From a virus (taxonomy: Duplodnaviria; Heunggongvirae; Uroviricota; Caudoviricetes): DNA of 38,517 nt. The translations under genes and the position numbers were made by a program. The stretch's first letter is position 1. Each line of letters begins with the position of its first letter. Where the stretch lies: the IMG/VR virus record IMGVR_UViG_2713897161_000001, positions 1 to 38,517 of that record; one strand, 5' to 3'. Below are positions 3,530 through 34,498 of the stretch, one piece after another. Under the pieces are notes generated by a model. That model saw only the letters and a list, made by a program, of their open reading frames with translations. It had not been told where the DNA came from and made no database searches.

Positions 3530-3757
3530 TCATAATTCACTCTTCAATACTTCCAACTTACTAATCGCCGATAGATATCCGCGCTGATAGGGCATCATCA
3601 TTCCTTCGAGCTTGCCACTTCTTAACTCCTCCCTGAGCAATTGTATTGCTTGATCAATAACCTCTGCCTTAGCGTCCTTTATGGCTTGCTTGCGGGGCTT
3701 TGCTTTCTGCTTTGGCAGATTTCTCAAGCATGATGGAATGTATGTCTGATTCATCAC
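3530..3757 (-). CDS. Hypothetical protein (75 aa) immediately downstream of N
   Basis: ORF abutting N stop; basic, coiled-coil-like; no family recognised. Confidence 0.4.
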   Translation of the reverse strand: MMNQTYIPSCLRNLPKQKAKPRKQAIKDAKAEVIDQAIQLLREELRSGKLEGMMMPYQRGYLSAISKLEVLKSEL

Positions 3758-4141
3758 TTACCTCGCTGTCAGTTGTTTTGATTTCCGGTAGCCTGCCGCG
3801 TAAATGGCTACGTTTGGAAGACATACACCAGTTTCTGGTTGCTTATGTCCAAACTCATTCGCGTACACAATGGCCGCTCGCTCCAGATTGCGTCTGTATT
3901 CTTTCTGTTGCCAGATCACGTCCTGTGCCATGAACTTAATTGGCTTAGCGTCTTCTATGCGCTCAGGCGTTTCGTGAGTACCTTTAGCCTGAATCTGCGC
4001 TCTGCTTAGAGTAGGGCGGTGTAATACTTCTGAACTTATTGCTTCTTCGCGGGCCAGCACGCCGTTAGCTAATGCCTTTGCCTTTAAACGCTCACGACGA
4101 CGAGAACGTGAATTGCCTTTGAACTGAGTTCTGCGTGTCAT
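3758..4141 (-). CDS. N: N-type transcription antiterminator (P22 gene 24-like)
   Basis: Arginine-rich motif near N-terminus (RSRRRERLKAKALA) and C-terminal end ...YAAGYRKSKQLTAR resembling P22 N as recalled; canonical boxB hairpins lie upstream in both nutL and nutR positions. Confidence 0.75.
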   Translation of the reverse strand: MTRRTQFKGNSRSRRRERLKAKALANGVLAREEAISSEVLHRPTLSRAQIQAKGTHETPERIEDAKPIKFMAQDVIWQQKEYRRNLERAAIVYANEFGHKQPETGVCLPNVAIYAAGYRKSKQLTAR

Positions 4142-4306
4142 ATAGACCTCCTGATGAACTTTGGTGGTGTGGTAGGTGGGAGACCCATTTCGACCTGTTT
4201 CGGCCTACTTTAATTCGGCAATAGTCCCGCAGGCCTCGCCGCTTTACGTGCGACATATTCCCGTCCATGAACCCTTCACCACACCCCAAAGTTCACTTTG
4301 GTTATT

Positions 4307-5489: not shown

Positions 5490-6194
5490 TCACGAACTTT
5501 TCAGCCACTCCCTTGCCTCGATGTCATCCAGATGGCGAGATTGCTTCAGAATACCAGCCACATACTCCACCTTTGCTACTTGATGATAAGGCAACGTTAT
5601 TGGCCTATGGTCCTGGTTGATGCTTGTAAACTGGTATTCTCCGTCTCTGTCATAGCCAAGAACTTTGATCATGTTGTGTCCTTCAACGGTTCTGACAAAC
5701 ACCTCATCACCCGGGAATACTTTGGTGTTAGGCTCAATGAGTACATATTCTCCTGATTTTATTCTAGGCCACATGCTGTCTCCTTTCACACGAAGACCAA
5801 AGGCATCTGGATCATCGCTATAAATTTTGAGCCACCCATCGCGCTCTTCGGTCATCTCGATGGCACCATCAACACCAAGAATTGCCTCACCAACCACGCG
5901 CACTAACCCTTTTCTTACCTGACCGACAAAAGTTAAAGAATCTGAGCATGATGCAATTGGTGTTACATCATGTACCAAATCAAGCCACCCATTAGGTAAC
6001 CCAAGTGCGGCTTCAAATTTTCTTGCTAGTTTATCCCCTATGTTTCGAGTGCTTTTTTCACCGGAGACTTGCGTGAGTTGAGAAGGGCTAACCCCAAGCT
6101 TATCGGCAAAGCTTGCATTAGTGTTACCCGCGATTTTTTTATGCTCATCTAGCAAAAACGCCAGATTCGATTTGCGAATATCTTTGTTTTCCAT
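5490..6194 (-). CDS. cI: cI-type repressor (HTH DNA-binding domain plus LexA/S24-like autocleavage domain)
   Basis: 234 aa; N-terminal HTH-like region, C-terminal S24 peptidase-like segment (GDSMWP...EYVLIEP, NMIKVL); divergent from cro across an operator-rich intergenic region. Confidence 0.85.
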   Translation of the reverse strand: MENKDIRKSNLAFLLDEHKKIAGNTNASFADKLGVSPSQLTQVSGEKSTRNIGDKLARKFEAALGLPNGWLDLVHDVTPIASCSDSLTFVGQVRKGLVRVVGEAILGVDGAIEMTEERDGWLKIYSDDPDAFGLRVKGDSMWPRIKSGEYVLIEPNTKVFPGDEVFVRTVEGHNMIKVLGYDRDGEYQFTSINQDHRPITLPYHQVAKVEYVAGILKQSRHLDDIEAREWLKSS

Positions 6195-6222
6195 CTCACA
6201 ATTTTCCCTCTATTTAGCAAAT

Positions 6223-6296
6223 GGATAAATACGCAATATGATAAATTTACATTGCGTTTGATTTATCAAAATGGTAAAGTTATTCTGTATGATAAA
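6223..6296. promoter_or_regulatory. OR operators with divergent pRM/pR (putative)
   Basis: Repeated GGATAAAT/TGATAAAT/TGATAAAC motifs at 6223-6230, 6239-6246, 6289-6296 and palindrome TTTGATTTATCAAA at 6257-6270 in the cI-cro intergenic region. Confidence 0.5.
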
Positions 6297-6307
6297 CGGA
6301 GGCACTA

Positions 6308-6541
6308 ATGAGTAATGAACTACTACGCTGGCGAAAAGAGGCTTCTAGTGAGGAATGGAAGCGACTCGCCGCATTAGCGAAAACTTCAGTTGGCTATCTT
6401 GACCAGATTGCATATGGATTTCGAAGAGCTTCCCCTGATAAAGCGAATGCAATCGAAGAAGCTACTCGTAATTTCACGGCCTATAAACCCGTGAAAAAGG
6501 AAAACCTGGTGTTCGTATCGCGTAGAGCATCAGCAGCATAA
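6308..6541 (+). CDS. cro: Cro-like transcriptional regulator
   Basis: 77 aa ORF divergent from cI, first gene of rightward operon; family call by position. Confidence 0.6.
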   Translation: MSNELLRWRKEASSEEWKRLAALAKTSVGYLDQIAYGFRRASPDKANAIEEATRNFTAYKPVKKENLVFVSRRASAA

Positions 6542-6548
6542 GTAACAC

Positions 6549-6594
6549 CGCTCTTTTCACAATGGACATTCGTCCTACGTCGCTGACAAAGCGA
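6549..6594 (+). promoter_or_regulatory. nutR (boxA CGCTCTTTT and boxB hairpin TCGCTGACAAAGCGA)
   Basis: boxA-like CGCTCTTTT at 6549-6557, boxB stem-loop at 6580-6594, between cro and cII. Confidence 0.6.
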
Positions 6595-6679
6595 GTCCCA
6601 ATATATCTGACCAACTAAGGCCACATGCGTTTCCACGCATACCTTTCAACTAACTATTCACTATTGGAAATATTAAGAA

Positions 6680-6976
6680 ATGGAACAAACAAGTTACAGC
6701 AAACTATCACAGCGTGACGTTGATCGCGCAGAAACAGATTTACTTATCAATCTGTCAACTATTACCCAGCGCGGTCTGGCAAAGATGATTGGCTGTCATG
6801 AATCGAAGATAAGCAGAACGGACTGGAGATTTATTGCTTCGGTCTTGTGTGCTTTCGGAATGGCATCAGACATCAGTCCGATTAGCAGGGCTTTTAAGTA
6901 TGCGCTTGATGAAATCACAAAGAAAAAATCCCCGGCTGCCACCGAGGATTTTAAGCAAATTGATATGCAATTCTGA
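6680..6976 (+). CDS. cII: cII-type transcriptional activator
   Basis: 98 aa; HTH region and C-terminus ...[18 protein letters not shown] closely resembling lambda cII C-terminus as recalled. Confidence 0.75.
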
Positions 6977-13815: not shown

Positions 13816-14328
13816 ATGAAAGAAATAAAATTAACGCCAGAAATGGTGCTTTCTGTTGTTGATTACAATCCATCATCAGGCGACTTTCACTGGAGATGGA
13901 GGCAGGGGAGAGAGAGGACCACTTTGACATGGAACTCTCGTTTTGCTTTCAAGAAATGCTCATCAATAAATTCTGATGGGTATTTAATGATTATGATTAA
14001 TGGTAAAGCATACCCTGCTCACAGACTGGCATGGTTGATTGTTTATGGCACCATGCCCGATGGTTTTATTGATCACATCAACAGGGTAAGAACAGATAAC
14101 CGGATATCAAATCTTCGTCTTGTCACTCATTCCGAAAATATGCAAAACAGGAAAATTCAGAAGAATAATAAATCTGGATACCGTGGCGTGTCTTGGGATG
14201 CTAAGTACGGGAAATGGAGAGCAAGAATTAATGCGTCTGGAAAGTGTATTAACCTTGGATACCATGACACTGCCGAACTTGCCGCTGCGGCTTTTGAGGC
14301 AGCCAGAATGAAATATCATACCGTTTAA
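13816..14328 (+). CDS. HNH homing endonuclease with AP2-like DNA-binding domain
   Basis: 170 aa; HNH-like region (DHINRVRTDNRISNLRLVTHSEN) and AP2-like region (SGYRGVSWDAKYGKWRARI). Confidence 0.75.
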   Translation: MKEIKLTPEMVLSVVDYNPSSGDFHWRWRQGRERTTLTWNSRFAFKKCSSINSDGYLMIMINGKAYPAHRLAWLIVYGTMPDGFIDHINRVRTDNRISNLRLVTHSENMQNRKIQKNNKSGYRGVSWDAKYGKWRARINASGKCINLGYHDTAELAAAAFEAARMKYHTV

Positions 14329-28280: not shown

Positions 28281-30351
28281 CGCAGATACGATTAAAGATT
28301 TCCTTGTTTCGCTGGGATTCGATATCGATCAGGCTGGCGCTAATAAGTTTGAAGCCGTGCTGAAAGGCGTTACCGCAAACGTTATGAAGGTCGGCGCGGT
28401 GGTGGAAGGCGCAGCGCTGAGCATTGTCGGATTTACCACCCAGATCGCGAATGGTCTGGATAAAATTTACTGGGCATCCCAGCGGACGGGGGCCAGCGTC
28501 CAGGGCATCAAAGCGCTGGGCTATGCCGCATCGCAAACTGGCGCCAGCGCTGAGTCGGCCATGTCCTCCCTCGAAGGGTTGGCTGGCTTCATGCGTAGCA
28601 ATCCGGGGGCGGAAGGGTTCCTGAACCGTCTTGGTGTCCAGACCCGCGATGCCAGCGGAAAGATGCGTGATACTGCTGCCATCTTTACTGGCGTTGGGCA
28701 AAAGCTCAACAACATGCCGTATTACCGCGCGAAGCAATACGCGCAGATGCTCGGTATCGATGAAAACACGCTGATGGCGATGCGGCGCGGCATGAATGGC
28801 TTTACCGCCGATTACCAGTCTATGCTGCAAAAGACGGGGTTCAACGCTGATAAGGCAGCCGTTCAGTCCAACAAATTCATGACGTCCATGCACGGGCTTA
28901 CGTCGCTGTTTGGCATTATGCGGGACAAGATCGGCTCAAATCTCGCTGGTGGCTTGGCTGGTTCGCTGGACAGCCTGCGGCGGCGCATCCTCGACAACTT
29001 CCCGAAGATTGAAGAGACTCTGACCAAAGTTATTAAGGGCGTGATCTGGCTTGCAAACGCCTTCACACGAATGGCGTGGCGGCTTATACAGGGCGCTGGC
29101 TCTGTCATTGACTGGTGGAAGCGTCTTGATGATGGCAGTAAAAATCTGCTGAAAATATTCGGTGCTCTACTGGTCGCATGGCGTCTGCTTAATTCTGCGT
29201 TCCTGAAATCCCCGATTGGAATTATCACCACACTGATTCTGGCGATCGGATTGCTGTACGACGATTACCAGACGTGGAAAGAGGGCGGTAAAAGCCTGAT
29301 TGACTGGTCCAAATGGCAGCCAGAAATTGAGCAGGCAAAGAAGGTGTTCAAGTGGCTGCGCGATAAGTTTCTGGAGCTCAAGGACAACCTCGGCGGCTGG
29401 AAAAATACGCTTACCATCCTGTTTGGCTTTCTGGCCGGTGCGAAGCTGTTCTCCATGCTCACTGGTATCGGGCGACTTGTCGCCGGATTTATGGGGCTCG
29501 GTAAGGCAATTGGCGGCTCTATTGGTGGGCTGGGTAAGCTGGCGCAGGGGATCGCTCAGTTGGCAATCAAGAATCCCTGGTTGCTTATGTTCATTCCTGC
29601 CAACAATACGCCGACCACCAGTGAAGAAATGGCGTCGATTGGCGGTATAGGCAGCAATATCGTACCTGAAAGGCAGCAGGCATATGAGGCGCTGAGAAAG
29701 GAAAATCCCGGCCAAGACTTTTTCACTGATGAGCAAATCCAGCGAAAAATTCAGGAGATGGGACTGGAGCCGGAGCAGCGAGCGCAGTCGGTTAAACGCC
29801 CACAAGCCACAGCGCAGGGCAAGGTTTTGCTCGACTGGATGGGGCCATTGTTCAATAAGCTGGAGTCTCTTTATCAGCTGCCTGCTGGCCTGTTGAAAAG
29901 CGTGGCGATCACCGAGTCGGGTGGTAACCAGTTCGCTGTGTCCGGCGCAGGCGCGAAAGGACTGTTTCAGTTTATGGATGGCACGGCGCGCGACATGGGC
30001 CTGCGTGGGAATGATGTATTCGACCCGGAAAAGTCAGCTCAGGCAGCCGCTAAGTACCTCAGCCAGCTGTTGCGGCAGAACGGCGGAGACCTTAGCAAAG
30101 CACTGGCATCATATAACTGGGGGATCGGGAATGTTAAGCGTTATGGAATGGGGCTAATGCCGCAGGAAACGCGCAACTACATTCCGAAAGTAATGAGCAA
30201 TATGCCCACCAGCGCCCCGGTGATTCAGCAGGAAACGAATATTAACATCCACGGTGTTTCCGATCCGCTTGAAGCTGCCCGTTTGACTGTTGACCGTCAA
30301 AAGGGCGTGAATTCACAGTTAACCCAGCAACTCCCCGCAGGACCGAGATAA
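28270..30351 (+). CDS. Tail tape measure protein with C-terminal lytic transglycosylase (SLT) domain
   Basis: 693 aa; hydrophobic central segments; C-terminal ESGGNQ...GAKGLFQF motif typical of SLT domains. Confidence 0.8.
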   Translation: MSGNADTIKDFLVSLGFDIDQAGANKFEAVLKGVTANVMKVGAVVEGAALSIVGFTTQIANGLDKIYWASQRTGASVQGIKALGYAASQTGASAESAMSSLEGLAGFMRSNPGAEGFLNRLGVQTRDASGKMRDTAAIFTGVGQKLNNMPYYRAKQYAQMLGIDENTLMAMRRGMNGFTADYQSMLQKTGFNADKAAVQSNKFMTSMHGLTSLFGIMRDKIGSNLAGGLAGSLDSLRRRILDNFPKIEETLTKVIKGVIWLANAFTRMAWRLIQGAGSVIDWWKRLDDGSKNLLKIFGALLVAWRLLNSAFLKSPIGIITTLILAIGLLYDDYQTWKEGGKSLIDWSKWQPEIEQAKKVFKWLRDKFLELKDNLGGWKNTLTILFGFLAGAKLFSMLTGIGRLVAGFMGLGKAIGGSIGGLGKLAQGIAQLAIKNPWLLMFIPANNTPTTSEEMASIGGIGSNIVPERQQAYEALRKENPGQDFFTDEQIQRKIQEMGLEPEQRAQSVKRPQATAQGKVLLDWMGPLFNKLESLYQLPAGLLKSVAITESGGNQFAVSGAGAKGLFQFMDGTARDMGLRGNDVFDPEKSAQAAAKYLSQLLRQNGGDLSKALASYNWGIGNVKRYGMGLMPQETRNYIPKVMSNMPTSAPVIQQETNINIHGVSDPLEAARLTVDRQKGVNSQLTQQLPAGPR

Positions 30352-31262: not shown

Positions 31263-32330
31263 ATGTCTCTTAACTGGATGCGCCATTTTGAGTTGCAGCT
31301 GTTGGACCAGAACGGGCAGGGTATTTCCCTGTCTGACTTTAAGGTCACGTTCCAGATCGAGTGGGCAGATACACGCTGGCCGCGCGTGGCAAACGTGAAA
31401 ATTTATAACCTTTCGACCGATACCACGAACAAGATACTTGGGCAGGAGTTTGCCAAAATTCGCATCATTGCCGGGTATGACGGTATAGCGCCGGATGTTG
31501 ATGCGAGCCAGGTTGGTGTGTCCCGGGAGATTTCACCAGACCAGATAGGGCAGGTGAACGGTCAGAACTACGGCCTGATTTTTGACGGTGATATTCGCTT
31601 CACCGTCACCGGGAAGGACAACATTACGGATTCCTGGGTGTTGATTCAGGCCATTGGTGATCACGAAGCGTTCCTCTATGCGACCACCATCACCACGCTT
31701 GCCGCTGGCTATACCGTTGCGGATCTGCACCGGGCGACGATGCAGGATTTCAACGCGTTCGGCGTGACACAGGGCATTACCGGCGATTTTCCTGATACCG
31801 TGTTTCCTCGTGGCCGCGCGATTTACTCATCCAGCCGCAACGTGATGGATAATATTGCTGCGCAGTGCAAAGCGACATGGCAACTGGTGGATGGTCAGGT
31901 CCAGATGGTGCCGGAGGATAAATATATTCACGAAGCCATTGTGTTGAATGCCGATACTGGCCTGATCGGTATGCCGCAACAAACGATGGGCGGCGGAGTA
32001 AACGTGCGGTGCCTGATAAACCCAAACATCCGTATTAATGGTCTTATCCAGCTCGATCAGGCTTCGGTGTACCGCGCCACGCTCGGCAATAGCGAAATAG
32101 CACAGTCGCCCGGGCGTATCACCGAAACAGAAGAGAACGGCAACCGTGTGCTGACCGGCACGACGTCACAGGCTGCCAGCATTGCGACAGATGGCGTTTA
32201 TATCGTCAAAGCTATCGACTATACTGGCGACACCAGAGGTCAGGCGTGGTACATGGATTTGATGTGCTTTGCGCGTGGCGCTCGTGATCTGATTAGCCAG
32301 GCGACTATAGCTCGTTCAGGAGGAGGTTGA
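31263..32330 (+). CDS. Putative baseplate hub/tail protein
   Basis: 355 aa, position after tape measure. Confidence 0.45.
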   Translation: MSLNWMRHFELQLLDQNGQGISLSDFKVTFQIEWADTRWPRVANVKIYNLSTDTTNKILGQEFAKIRIIAGYDGIAPDVDASQVGVSREISPDQIGQVNGQNYGLIFDGDIRFTVTGKDNITDSWVLIQAIGDHEAFLYATTITTLAAGYTVADLHRATMQDFNAFGVTQGITGDFPDTVFPRGRAIYSSSRNVMDNIAAQCKATWQLVDGQVQMVPEDKYIHEAIVLNADTGLIGMPQQTMGGGVNVRCLINPNIRINGLIQLDQASVYRATLGNSEIAQSPGRITETEENGNRVLTGTTSQAASIATDGVYIVKAIDYTGDTRGQAWYMDLMCFARGARDLISQATIARSGGG

Positions 32331-33221
32331 GTGTATAAGAACATGAATGGACTTCGATACAGTGTGATTTTCCTGTCGGTGCTGCTCGTTTCTGGATGCG
32401 CAAATGCAGGCTTCAATTCTGATAAGAATGTTAGTTACAAAAAACGCCCCGGGTGGCAGCCAATTTTAATCTTATCGGCAGACGATTGCCAAACATGGCA
32501 ATCGAAAGGTAAGTCACTTATCGACTGGAGTGGGGAATCTTGCGGTCCCGAAGGGTTGATTAAGGCGATTAATAAAAAACCAGAGATGATCCCTATTTTT
32601 TATGCTGCATATCATGAGTACGGTACCGGTGGCGTTGGGGCTATCGATGTAAGAGATAATTCCCCGCTAAATTACCTTAACTTTGAAAATAACTTAGCTA
32701 AAAATCTTTCATCATTAACTGTAATATCAAAGATATATGATGACTACACCATTGACAGAAAACCAATGGGTCTTGCAGAGGTTTCACGTGAGGTTTTTGT
32801 TAAGAGGCTAAATGATTTTTCTTTGCAGCAGCCTGCTATCTATCAAAAGATGAATGATGTAGCGAAGGCCGATTATGAGAAAAGCAAAAAAGCACACAGC
32901 AACGAAAAACTTGGTGTGAACTACAAGACTACTTGTGGGCCTTATACGATAGACCTGTCGTCTGCTGATGGTTGGGCCAGAATTAATGGCGTGAAACCAG
33001 AGACGCAAAAAATTACTCCAATTGGTACTGGTGGCAGCACAAACCGTGAGCCGGATAACGTCAAAATGGAGTGGATGGTCGATACTGACCAACCTGGCCG
33101 GTGGGTAGGGCTCGAGTACATCAAGCGCAACGGCAAAGCCATTCTCAATGCTCAGTGGCTGCAAGCCAGCATGGATTCGCCGCGTCAGTATGCAACATAC
33201 GACTGCCGAAAAGTAAAATAG
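32331..33221 (+). CDS. Accessory lipoprotein (296 aa) in AT-rich insert; carries tape-measure-like motif
   Basis: GTG start after AGGAGG; signal peptide with lipobox LLVSGC; AT-rich relative to flanks; residues DDCQTWQSKGKSLIDWS (32481-32531) mirror tape measure DDYQTWKEGGKSLIDWS (29260-29310). Confidence 0.6.
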   Translation: MYKNMNGLRYSVIFLSVLLVSGCANAGFNSDKNVSYKKRPGWQPILILSADDCQTWQSKGKSLIDWSGESCGPEGLIKAINKKPEMIPIFYAAYHEYGTGGVGAIDVRDNSPLNYLNFENNLAKNLSSLTVISKIYDDYTIDRKPMGLAEVSREVFVKRLNDFSLQQPAIYQKMNDVAKADYEKSKKAHSNEKLGVNYKTTCGPYTIDLSSADGWARINGVKPETQKITPIGTGGSTNREPDNVKMEWMVDTDQPGRWVGLEYIKRNGKAILNAQWLQASMDSPRQYATYDCRKVK

Positions 33222-33239
33222 CCCGCCAGATAGGCGGGC
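33209..33239 (-). terminator. Intrinsic terminator for the minus-strand DUF4236-like gene
   Basis: Hairpin GCCCGCC/AGATA/GGCGGGC at 33221-33239 with T-run on the minus strand (plus AAAAGTAAAATA). Confidence 0.45.
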
Positions 33240-33244
33240 ATGCG

Positions 33245-33535
33245 TCAAAAATATTGAGCTTTAATTATAATAAACACAATAATTACGAACAGGATGTTTC
33301 TAATTATTTTTTGCTTATGAGTAAGTTGTTTTTTTTCTGTCGATTTCCCGGGAGAGTAAAGGTTAGTGGTATGCGACAGCCCCGTGCCGGGAAGGCCATT
33401 TGTCATCTTTACGCCTTTTTTTCCGATGTTAATGGTGGAACCTTTACCACCAATTGAAGTGCTTACTCCGCTTTTACTAATGTTGATCGCGAGTCCGGGC
33501 GCAATCCGGATTCTTTTACGAAATCTAAATCCCAT
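33245..33535 (-). CDS. DUF4236-like small membrane protein (96 aa)
   Basis: N-terminus MGFRFRKRIRIAPGLAINISKSGVSTSIGGKG recalled as DUF4236 signature; C-terminal hydrophobic segment ILFVIIVFIII; opposite strand to all flanking tail genes. Confidence 0.55.
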   Translation of the reverse strand: MGFRFRKRIRIAPGLAINISKSGVSTSIGGKGSTINIGKKGVKMTNGLPGTGLSHTTNLYSPGKSTEKKQLTHKQKIIRNILFVIIVFIIIKAQYF

Positions 33536-33722
33536 TTGTTACTCCTGTAGTCAATAATGCGATGGTGCAGGTCCACTCTATGGCGGCTTCATGGCTGAAA
33601 TTGATTTTCAATGCTTACTTGTTGCAAATATATCCTAATACACCTTGTGAATATGTGCCATTGCAGTGGAAAAGCCTTACTTCACACTGATGTAGCTTAG
33701 TTACTAAGAGATAATTGATACC

Positions 33723-33747
33723 AAACCAGCTTCGGCTGGTTTTTTTA
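33723..33747 (+). terminator. Plus-strand intrinsic terminator immediately upstream of baseplate V-like gene
   Basis: Hairpin AAACCAGC/TTCG/GCTGGTTT followed by TTTTTTT, ending 11 nt before ATG 33758. Confidence 0.45.
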
Positions 33748-33757
33748 TGGGGTTTTT

Positions 33758-34498
33758 ATGCCAATTCCTACTCAATCACAGATCGGCGGCGAGCAGCAGA
33801 CCGCGCAGGCCATTGCCGATTCGGTGTCTACTCAGATGCGCGTAGCGATGCCTGGCATCATTCAGTCGTTCGATCCTGACGCTGTAACCTGCACAGTAGA
33901 GGTGGCGCTTCGCGGTATTGTTGGCGACGACTCCACCGAATTAAAACCGCTGGTGGATGTGCCTGTCATCTTCCCGCGCGGAGGCGGTTGCACGCTGACC
34001 TTTCCGGTAAAAGAAGGCGATGAGTGCCTGCTGATCTTTGCCGACCGTTGCATCGATTTCTGGTGGCAGAGCGGCGGCGTTCAGGAGACCGTCGATCCGC
34101 GACAGCATGACTTATCTGATGCGTTTGCCATCGTTGGCCCGCAGTCGCAAGCACAGAAAATCAGCGGTATCAGTACCAGCGCCGCGCAGCTGCGAACCGA
34201 TGATGGTGCGGCGTTCGTAGAGGTTTCCGCAGGACATAACATCACCGTTCAAACACCGGGCCAGCTCACGGCTACGGCTGAAGGTGGAACGACAATCACA
34301 TCCCCGACTATCACGCTGAACGGCAACGTAACGATTAATGGCAATCTGTCTCAGGGAATGGGAGAAAGTGGTGGTACTGCGACGATGCTTGGGCCGGTTA
34401 CGGTAACGAATGATGTGACAGCTTCAGGTATAAGTGTCGCCACGCATAAACATGGCGGAGTTCAGACAGGCGGGGGAACTACTGGAGGGCCGCAATAA
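33758..34498 (+). CDS. Baseplate spike/assembly protein V-like
   Basis: 246 aa; Gly/Thr-rich C-terminal repeats typical of spike beta-helix; position at start of baseplate cluster. Confidence 0.6.
   Translation: MPIPTQSQIGGEQQTAQAIADSVSTQMRVAMPGIIQSFDPDAVTCTVEVALRGIVGDDSTELKPLVDVPVIFPRGGGCTLTFPVKEGDECLLIFADRCIDFWWQSGGVQETVDPRQHDLSDAFAIVGPQSQAQKISGISTSAAQLRTDDGAAFVEVSAGHNITVQTPGQLTATAEGGTTITSPTITLNGNVTINGNLSQGMGESGGTATMLGPVTVTNDVTASGISVATHKHGGVQTGGGTTGGPQ

Follow-up and report, generated by a model that had tools for sequence, protein, structure and literature searches.

The 38,517-nt stretch of DNA analyzed here, in the following called the window (IMG/VR virus record IMGVR_UViG_2713897161_000001, positions 1 to 38,517; Caudoviricetes), encodes in its tail region a 296-residue lipoprotein carrying a 17-residue motif that is shared with the tape measure protein (TMP) of the same phage. 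We are highly confident that this motif is common to, and has been selected in, both the lipoprotein and the TMP family, and nearly as confident that the protein is an exported accessory lipoprotein. Regarding function, the sequence comparisons tentatively point to an envelope-located exclusion or defense protein that would use a helix-loop derived from the TMP as a decoy when DNA enters the cell, a reading that we favor while placing it somewhat below an even chance.

A motif common to lipoprotein and tape measure protein

The lipoprotein segment DDCQTWQSKGKSLIDWS (residues 51–67) and the TMP segment DDYQTWKEGGKSLIDWS (residues 331–347) are identical at 13 of 17 positions, including the 8-residue run GKSLIDWS, as the first-pass annotation of this DNA had noted and as was confirmed from the translations of both open reading frames (ORFs). 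That annotation had also argued against a recent DNA duplication, and this argument holds: the DNA of the two motifs agrees at 33 of 51 positions, the flanking DNA is at the random level, and different codons are used for 7 of the 13 identical residues, which speaks against a recent event. The codon strings it had quoted were interchanged, however, agc ctg att belonging to the TMP gene and tca ctt atc to the lipoprotein gene. Pairwise alignment by BLASTP gave an E value of 6e-6, with 20 identities over 40 positions when a 4-residue gap was permitted, and the Smith-Waterman score of 76 compares with 37 ± 5 for shuffled sequences, a score of 76 being reached by none of 3000 shuffles (Gumbel p 3e-5). 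When all six-frame ORFs of the window were compared with each other, lipoprotein and TMP formed the top cross-match (E 4e-4), a value that, taken alone, is borderline after multiple testing.

We consider family-level tests to be the decisive ones for the relationship between the two motifs. A profile of the lipoprotein family aligned with a profile of the TMP family over 38 columns (46–83 versus 332–369), with an hhalign probability of 94% and an E value of 9.6e-8. A hidden Markov model (HMM) built solely from the N-terminal domains of the lipoproteins (N-domains), searched against 10,571 six-frame ORFs (1.34 M residues) from 147 phage loci, retrieved 17 family members and 140 motif-bearing TMPs (E 4e-6 to 0.06). 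Its three remaining matches were short and comprised a truncated family member, a variant TMP, and a protein of locus L146 that is described below; no unrelated ORF was among the matches from these loci. Nor is the motif a common signature, which would have been at odds with the first-pass annotation: a sequence search of the PDB with the motif gave no match at E<1, and a lipoprotein profile run against 1.8 billion representative proteins returned 65 proteins, all of them family members. No TMP was found at E ≤ 1e-3 in this latter search, as is to be expected for a shared module of only about 20 residues.

The motif is kept in TMP homologs as well as in lipoprotein homologs. The 20 lipoprotein homologs, with identities down to 41% or lower, retain the pattern RPGWxxLxxLxxDDCxTxKxGGKSLxxWxxxxC, in which D52, C53, G60, W66, and C71 are invariant and D51, T55, K61, and L63 are conserved to at least 90%; the DD...GGKSL core is kept in most remote members, P0060, P0065, and P0074 being among those outside the searched pattern. 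Among TMPs of the myophage lineage concerned, conservation in the mid-region is highest in the block [DE]D[YF]xTWKEGGxSLIDW, with L, D, T, W, E, G, G, S, I, D, and W invariant in TMP alignment A3. Positions that are invariant or nearly so in both families are DD, T, G, K, L, and W, of which D, G, and W are invariant in the one family and in the other. At the invariant serine, the codon class switches within each family (AGY vs TCN) while the residue itself is retained, and the motif is under purifying selection on both sides. As a test of convergence versus divergence, the serine codons do not discriminate between the two, since both classes are present in both families.

Assignment of the TMP itself is based on a match to phrog_2276 over residues 1–692 (E 7.6e-215), on a C-terminal SLT lytic transglycosylase domain (PF01464, E 2.8e-25, residues 527–627), and on a gene position between the chaperone/DUF6889 genes and a Dit-like baseplate gene, as in relatives. 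The TMP motif is present in phages of Enterobacterales, Acinetobacter, and Ralstonia. Its exact 11-mer WKEGGKSLIDW was found on at least 120 IMG/VR contigs and, among the matches listed, always lies about 340 residues into a TMP-sized ORF; a homolog search with a TMP sub-segment gave mostly fragments. The motif is directly preceded by a hydrophobic hairpin (Kyte-Doolittle means of 1.5–1.98 in 19-residue windows), the helices of which end at K337 in the AlphaFold2 (AF2) model, and is followed by a charged stretch of 48 residues and then the next hydrophobic cluster. Within this region, AF2 confidence peaks at the motif, modeled as a helix, an EGGKSLID loop, and a second helix; the AF2 model of the lipoprotein has the same local helix-loop-helix at its motif.

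Several observations on TMPs were made along the way. Two weaker echoes of the motif occur in the TMP of the window: GSVIDWW (29095–29118, residues 276–283) upstream of the hydrophobic hairpin, a position at which an [ILVF]x[DEN]W[WF] element is seen in 70 of 107 distinct TMPs, and QGKVLLDWMG (29812–29844, residues 515–525) just before the SLT domain, present in 13 of the 107. The TMPs of L006 (6035–8041) and L008 (6062–8032) retain the N-terminal and mid regions of the window's TMP including the motif, and carry another C-terminal domain (GIRNNNPGNI...) in place of the SLT domain; the muralytic end of the TMP has therefore been exchanged as a module. In the TMP of L004 (2047–4314; E. coli O18ac:H14 873.10), the motif reads DDYQTRKEGGKSLIDW, with Arg replacing the otherwise invariant Trp. 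This prophage also has a truncated tail-fiber gene and a frameshifted recombinase, and is therefore probably decaying.

The lipoprotein, its relatives and its locus

The designation as a lipoprotein, proposed in the first-pass annotation, is borne out by a canonical signal that reads MYKNMNGLRYSVIFLSVLL followed by VSG and C23, thus combining the positive n-region, the hydrophobic h-region, and the lipobox ([LVI][ASTVI][GAS]C) of bacterial lipoproteins processed by Lgt and LspA. The lipobox cysteine is found in most of the 20 homologs and also in relatives of 350–374 aa; exceptions in the homolog alignment are P0003 (SGG) and P0009 (SGY), P0011 being N-terminally truncated. According to the E. 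coli Lol rule, lipoproteins without Asp at position +2 are sorted to the outer membrane. Since the +2 residue is Ala here, and A, V, T, S, or G in the homologs, the protein is predicted to be anchored in the outer membrane at its periplasmic face. The tether between anchor and N-domain spans about 12–20 residues.

AF2 modeling of the lipoprotein (21 sequences) gave two domains at a mean predicted local distance difference test (pLDDT) score of 79. The N-domain, with pLDDT values of 74–97 for 10-residue blocks up to residue 180, is composed of helices 42–57, 73–81, 84–96, 112–125, 129–146, 153–164, and 167–188. The motif forms the end of helix 42–57 and the subsequent loop, and is probably stapled by a disulfide between Cys53 and Cys71. 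No match to the N-domain was obtained in Pfam, NCBIfam, PHROG, or PADLOC, no family of the PADLOC-DB 2.0 anti-phage defense models reached E ≤ 0.1, and an N-domain fold search of PDB and BFVD was negative as well. The C-terminal domain (C-domain) belongs to phrog_3443 (E 3.8e-35; residues 198–296 versus profile positions 21–114 of 115). An MliC/PliC-type lysozyme inhibitor was considered for this barrel in view of the SLT domain of the TMP, and was rejected: Pfam provides no support, and TMPs devoid of an SLT domain are paired with the same C-domain. In E. coli EC2001 and SY3626 (L002 and L003, both at 6001–6891), the 296-aa lipoprotein ORF is intact; RefSeq lists only a C-terminal piece (123-aa CDS) or a pseudogene 'missing N-terminus' at these loci, probably because the GTG start abuts the hub gene.

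The 65 proteins retrieved by the profile search fall into three groups, namely the long form as found in the window, many proteins of about 115 aa consisting of the C-domain only, and lipoproteins of 350–374 aa in which the N-domain is combined with a different C-terminus. The N-domain is absent from most relatives of the phage, in which case the slot between the genes for the baseplate hub and the spike gpV usually harbors a short C-domain protein alone, as in Omnitron and many E. coli prophages. Fifty-one motif-bearing viral contigs had sufficient downstream sequence; among the matches listed, 38 encode the short C-domain protein only, 12 neither domain, and 1 the long form. On its own, the phrog_3443 barrel makes up a protein of about 115 aa that has a signal peptide and two conserved Cys (L004, 6311–6661; L005, 6295–6639). 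It fills the slot in most of the lineage and may be the ancestral occupant.

The second architecture, N-domain plus another C-terminus, occupies the same slot in Klebsiella prophages (P0071, 368 aa), and the 350–374-aa type is likewise encoded on integrase-AlpA-primase islands beside yicC in E. coli and Serratia, which look like phage satellites. A third architecture is found at L146 (IMGVR_UViG_2645727700_000004, 3548–4252), where the gene lies directly 3' of a TMP gene whose product resembles Acinetobacter TMPs. The encoded protein has the signal peptide MRKLLLGISFILFSTVSFA, followed by EK, and carries DDFKTWLTGGKSIYNWSGY; in hhalign, 48 columns align with the N-domain (probability 94%, E 2e-7), with the similarity restricted to the first ~50 residues of the N-domain, and differs elsewhere. 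Relatives of the L146 protein were not found among GenBank phages. Hence a module of roughly 40–50 residues is joined to three bodies and to two kinds of export signal, and is encoded either on mobile islands or within or next to phages whose TMP has the motif.

Another element of this kind was noticed in L009 (8008–20034; also in L010), where a mobile island of about 12 kb interrupts the gene for the major capsid protein in a prophage that shares the tail type of the window. Its cargo comprises two integrases, a Zn-ribbon/Toprim/DUF927 primase, and the N-domain lipoprotein P0020; the capsid fragments around the island align to residues 1–141 and 130–313 of the capsid protein encoded in the window. 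The island was seen on 15 contigs. No exact att repeat was seen within the sequence windows searched at L009.

The window represents a temperate phage, encoding RecT, KilA-N, an S24 repressor, a DnaB helicase, and an antirepressor, with a contractile tail of the E217/XM1/Pam3/phiTE-like "simple baseplate" kind. Downstream of the TMP gene follow the genes for a Dit-like protein, a Pam3_gp18-like plug, and the hub; the features of the region are compiled in Table 1.

Table 1. Positions of the genes, domains, motifs, and hairpins of the tail region in the window.
Feature	Position	Strand	Basis and remarks
TMP gene, 693 aa, C-terminal SLT lytic transglycosylase domain	28270..30351	+	phrog_2276, PF01464
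TMP hydrophobic hairpin, aa 293–333, directly N-terminal to the motif	29146..29268	+	Kyte-Doolittle, AF2
TMP motif DDYQTWKEGGKSLIDWS, aa 331–347	29260..29310	+	most conserved mid-region block
Baseplate hub gene	31263..32330	+	PF22759 E217_GP41, E 9e-6, slightly short of the curated cut-off
Lipoprotein gene	32331..33221	+	ORF of 296 aa, GTG start, low-GC island, 20 homologs with equivalent N-termini
Lipoprotein signal peptide MYKNMNGLRYSVIFLSVLLVSG preceding Cys23; lipobox VSGC, Ala at +2	32331..32399	+	read from sequence
All-helical N-domain, aa 34–192	32430..32906	+	AF2
TMP-like motif DDCQTWQSKGKSLIDWS, aa 51–67, between invariant Cys53 and Cys71	32481..32531	+	
C-terminal 8-stranded beta-barrel domain, aa 198–296	32922..33218	+	
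GC-rich hairpin GCCCGCC-agata-GGCGGGC between the convergent lipoprotein and DUF4236 genes	33222..33240	.	scores as a minus-strand terminator
DUF4236 gene, second island gene, opposite strand	33245..33535	-	PF14020, E 1.8e-20
Intrinsic-terminator-like hairpin plus T-run, closing the island	33723..33742	+	eight-pair stem, then TTTTTTTATGG; 16 nt before gpV
Baseplate spike gpV gene, right border of the variable slot	33758..34498	+	PF18352, E 1.4e-41; Apex motif PF18946

The first-pass annotation had regarded the lipoprotein as cargo. What stands of this is a low-GC accessory island within the tail operon, with a GC content of 0.37–0.48 across 32250–33750 compared with 0.50–0.61 in the flanks. 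This deviating composition agrees with the Juhala/Hendrix definition of a moron (PMC3594210), as does the location between two conserved genes, in a hub-gpV slot whose content varies across Omnitron, E. coli prophages, and the 51 viral contigs. As to a promoter and terminator of its own, which the definition also asks for, there is a terminator-like site at 33723–33742, whereas promoter-like sites stay at the level of shuffled sequence. The lipoprotein gene is, however, no textbook free-standing cargo gene, since its GTG start directly follows the hub stop codon (stop+1; junction sequence ggaggaggttgaGTG), the last hub codons GGA GGA GGT (GGAGGAGG) constituting its Shine-Dalgarno sequence. An identical stop+1 junction is present in L006, L008, L019, and L021, and the two genes overlap by 4 bases in L025/L026. 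From this abutment it follows that the lipoprotein gene is probably also translated late, together with the tail operon.

Three observations concern the neighborhood. The strong terminator-like hairpin upstream of gpV sits amid the late tail genes, on their coding strand, which calls for read-through/antitermination or a separate promoter for the baseplate genes. The DUF4236 gene is kept beside the slot in many E. coli prophages, even in those without the lipoprotein N-domain. In the early region (13816–14328, plus strand), a fusion of an HNH endonuclease with an AP2 DNA-binding domain is encoded, resembling a homing-endonuclease-type insertion.

Possible functions of the shared motif

Outer-membrane lipoproteins of phages are known to serve exclusion, lysis (o-spanins, which are far smaller), or host fitness; a lipoprotein cannot be part of the virion, as virions assemble in the cytoplasm. 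Mobile islands, satellites, and prophages hold hotspots of anti-phage defense (PMC9122126, PMC11364771), and the presence of N-domain relatives on satellite-like islands fits a role in phage-phage conflict. Taken together with the precedents discussed below, the TMP-like module and its mobile genomic settings favor exclusion at the step of DNA entry. We give a role in exclusion or defense as such an even chance; that it is exerted via TMP mimicry appears possible, yet on balance doubtful. A more far-reaching version, according to which prophages and satellite-like islands have repeatedly fused the most conserved TMP segment to export signals, as in the three architectures, to yield a periplasmic, tethered dominant-negative that stops TMP assembly or insertion, strikes us as somewhat unlikely.

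In the favored scenario, a TMP of this lineage of myophages would have been the source from which the module was acquired in the distant past, a direction of transfer that we infer. The lipoprotein would be exported, lipid-modified, and delivered to the outer membrane, at the periplasmic face of which its N-domain would display the most conserved element of the TMP, i.e., the helix end DDxxTWK, a Gly-Gly break, and the loop KSLIDW, probably held in place by the Cys53-Cys71 disulfide. Upon injection, the incoming TMP would exit the tube in the periplasm and assemble or insert through its hairpin-plus-motif region; the tethered mimic could then fill the partner surface needed by the motif loop of the incoming TMP, candidate partners being a second chain of the TMP, a protein of the tail tip, or a host factor in the periplasm, and DNA entry would halt after adsorption.

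Little is understood of how TMPs bring DNA through the periplasm and the inner membrane, above all in phages with contractile tails. If nature exports a copy of the TMP element that is conserved best, this copy would indicate the residues of importance and could serve as an inhibitor to probe the step. If the scenario is true, the function of these TMPs would hinge on the DDxxTWKEGGKSLIDW loop as the key interface, exclusion proteins of a 'TMP-mimic' class would exist, defense by mimicry of virion proteins would extend to the injection stage, and a new, unannotated gene family could be added to catalogs of prophage and satellite defense. It would also bear on the prediction of cross-resistance among SEN34-like/Omnitron-like temperate phages of E. 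coli, Salmonella, Klebsiella, and Citrobacter.

A number of observations weigh against a TMP-derived decoy. Residues W56, E58, and D65 are fixed in TMPs and variable among the lipoproteins, and no covariation between the lipoprotein motif and the motif of the cognate TMP was detected in 6 pairs, a test that is powerless because the TMP motif is nearly invariant; the L008 pair, in which TMP (GGN) and lipoprotein (GGD) both depart from Lys at the same position, is anecdotal. The long-form arrangement is rare (1 of 51 contigs, among the matches listed). As regards expression in lysogens, the gene abuts the hub gene, and in a promoter scan at the lipoprotein gene promoter-like sites did not exceed the shuffle expectation. 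In addition, the AF2 model of the motif region of the TMP is of low confidence (mean pLDDT 54), and the TMP-like segment of the lipoprotein could merely be a folding element that binds nothing.

Another explanation holds that the Trp/Asp-rich helix-GG-loop is a shared building block, a self-contained structural or membrane-interface element that was inherited from an old fragment or arose by convergence, in a lipoprotein devoted to some unrelated lysogenic conversion, for instance a contribution to the fitness of the envelope or to resistance against serum, as with Bor of lambda. We consider this explanation unlikely. It gains from the limitation of the similarity to about 20–38 residues, from the variable positions and lacking covariation just mentioned, and from IDW-type elements on both sides of the TMP hairpin (in 70 of 107 distinct TMPs), which suggest an interfacial aromatic belt; moreover, phage outer-membrane lipoproteins with phage-unrelated roles exist, Bor being an example (cited in PMC3594210). 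Yet interfacial or capping elements are rarely conserved to the extent of GGKSLxxW across proteins that are otherwise 20–25% identical, the module occurs in three unrelated architectures, nearly always beside or within genomes having the TMP motif, and no unrelated protein with the motif emerged from the 1.8-billion-protein, PDB, and 10,571-ORF searches.

The motif evidence in favor of a decoy (BLASTP, hhalign, N-domain HMM) applies in the same way to a competition for host factors, the version put forward in the first-pass annotation, in which the TMP motif would dock to a periplasmic or inner-membrane entry factor and the lipoprotein would titrate or block this factor without touching the incoming phage. 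Association of the lambda TMP with ManYZ (PMC13190303) is in line with such a scheme. We nevertheless judge it improbable: the outer-membrane anchor and the tether of about 12–20 residues would keep the motif far from the inner membrane, so that competition for a factor located there is less likely than contact with the tail tip or TMP; titrating a host chaperone constitutively would be costly; and the phage lineage has no known host partner.

The lipoprotein might also be a helper of the lytic cycle rather than a defense expressed from the prophage, i.e., be made late with the tail genes and serve the producing phage, for instance by altering the envelope of the infected cell such that sibling virions do not inject wastefully, or by aiding release. 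A precedent is Llp of phage T5, reportedly a lipoprotein produced during lytic growth. The start at the hub stop codon and the Shine-Dalgarno sequence inside the hub gene, both seen in relatives too, would suit this idea, as would the lack of a promoter above background. The idea has a rather small probability in our view, given that related N-domain lipoproteins reside on satellite-like islands without tail genes, that low GC content and a terminator suit a moron, and that the long form is dispensable, most relatives being without it. Chance resemblance of two unrelated proteins, for which one might invoke the borderline E value of 4e-4 in the window-only comparison, is extremely improbable and effectively refuted by the family-level tests (hhalign, N-domain HMM), by the conservation of both motifs, and by recurrence of the motif in a third protein type.

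Comparison with known systems

Coming back to the decoy that we favor, the statement in the first-pass annotation that TMP-directed exclusion has been described for other phages proved correct, with precedents in Ltp of the Streptococcus thermophilus phage TP-J34 (Bebeacua et al. 2013, cited in PMC3952083) and in the tail-dependent gp15 of HK97 (PMC3594210). Ltp is reported to be a superinfection-exclusion lipoprotein that targets the TMP: like the protein described here, it is a prophage-encoded lipoprotein located outside the cytoplasmic membrane, and it engages the TMP to stop DNA injection after adsorption. Unlike in the present case, the host is Gram-positive, the phage is a siphophage, and the gene belongs to the lysogeny module rather than to the tail operon. 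No similarity of our lipoprotein to Ltp was found in sequence or fold. Ltp is made of helix-turn-helix-like repeat domains, and we know of no report of a TMP segment within it.

HK97 gp15, the first moron to be described, is encoded in the tail operon and blocks genome entry in a tail-dependent manner (PMC3594210). It resembles the lipoprotein gene in being an accessory gene within the tail operon, by the TMP region; gp15 spares the receptor, and its specificity is set by the incoming tail. In contrast, gp15 is not a lipoprotein; it is small, resides in the inner membrane, and derives from YebO of the host, with no TMP-like segment reported.

A further parallel is offered by SNIPE, a membrane nuclease that binds TMPs at the site of genome injection and some homologs of which have an N-terminal region homologous to the P22 tail needle (PMC13190303), such that a defense protein with a borrowed piece of injection machinery has been seen before. 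SNIPE, however, is a nuclease at the cytoplasmic face acting against siphophages, whereas the lipoprotein has no enzymatic domain and is predicted to face the periplasm. Llp of T5 and Cor (PMC9586334, PMC3594210) are phage-encoded lipoproteins of the outer membrane that likewise act against superinfecting phages; they do so by binding to the FhuA receptor, which prevents adsorption, and nothing ties our lipoprotein to a receptor. For the lipoprotein described here, exclusion would be the shared feature. Homology to Llp or Cor was not indicated, the N-domain being without a Pfam or PHROG match.

Also related are the short exported phrog_3443 proteins of SEN34-like/Omnitron-like myophages, which share the C-terminal 99-residue family and the hub-gpV slot with the lipoprotein, and differ from it in their size of about 115 aa, in a plain signal peptide, and in the lack of N-domain and motif. 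Our literature and library searches yielded no account of the N-domain family, of the motif, or of an exported protein with a TMP segment. A prophage envelope protein that blocks injection is of a known kind, whereas a decoy module derived from a TMP would be new.

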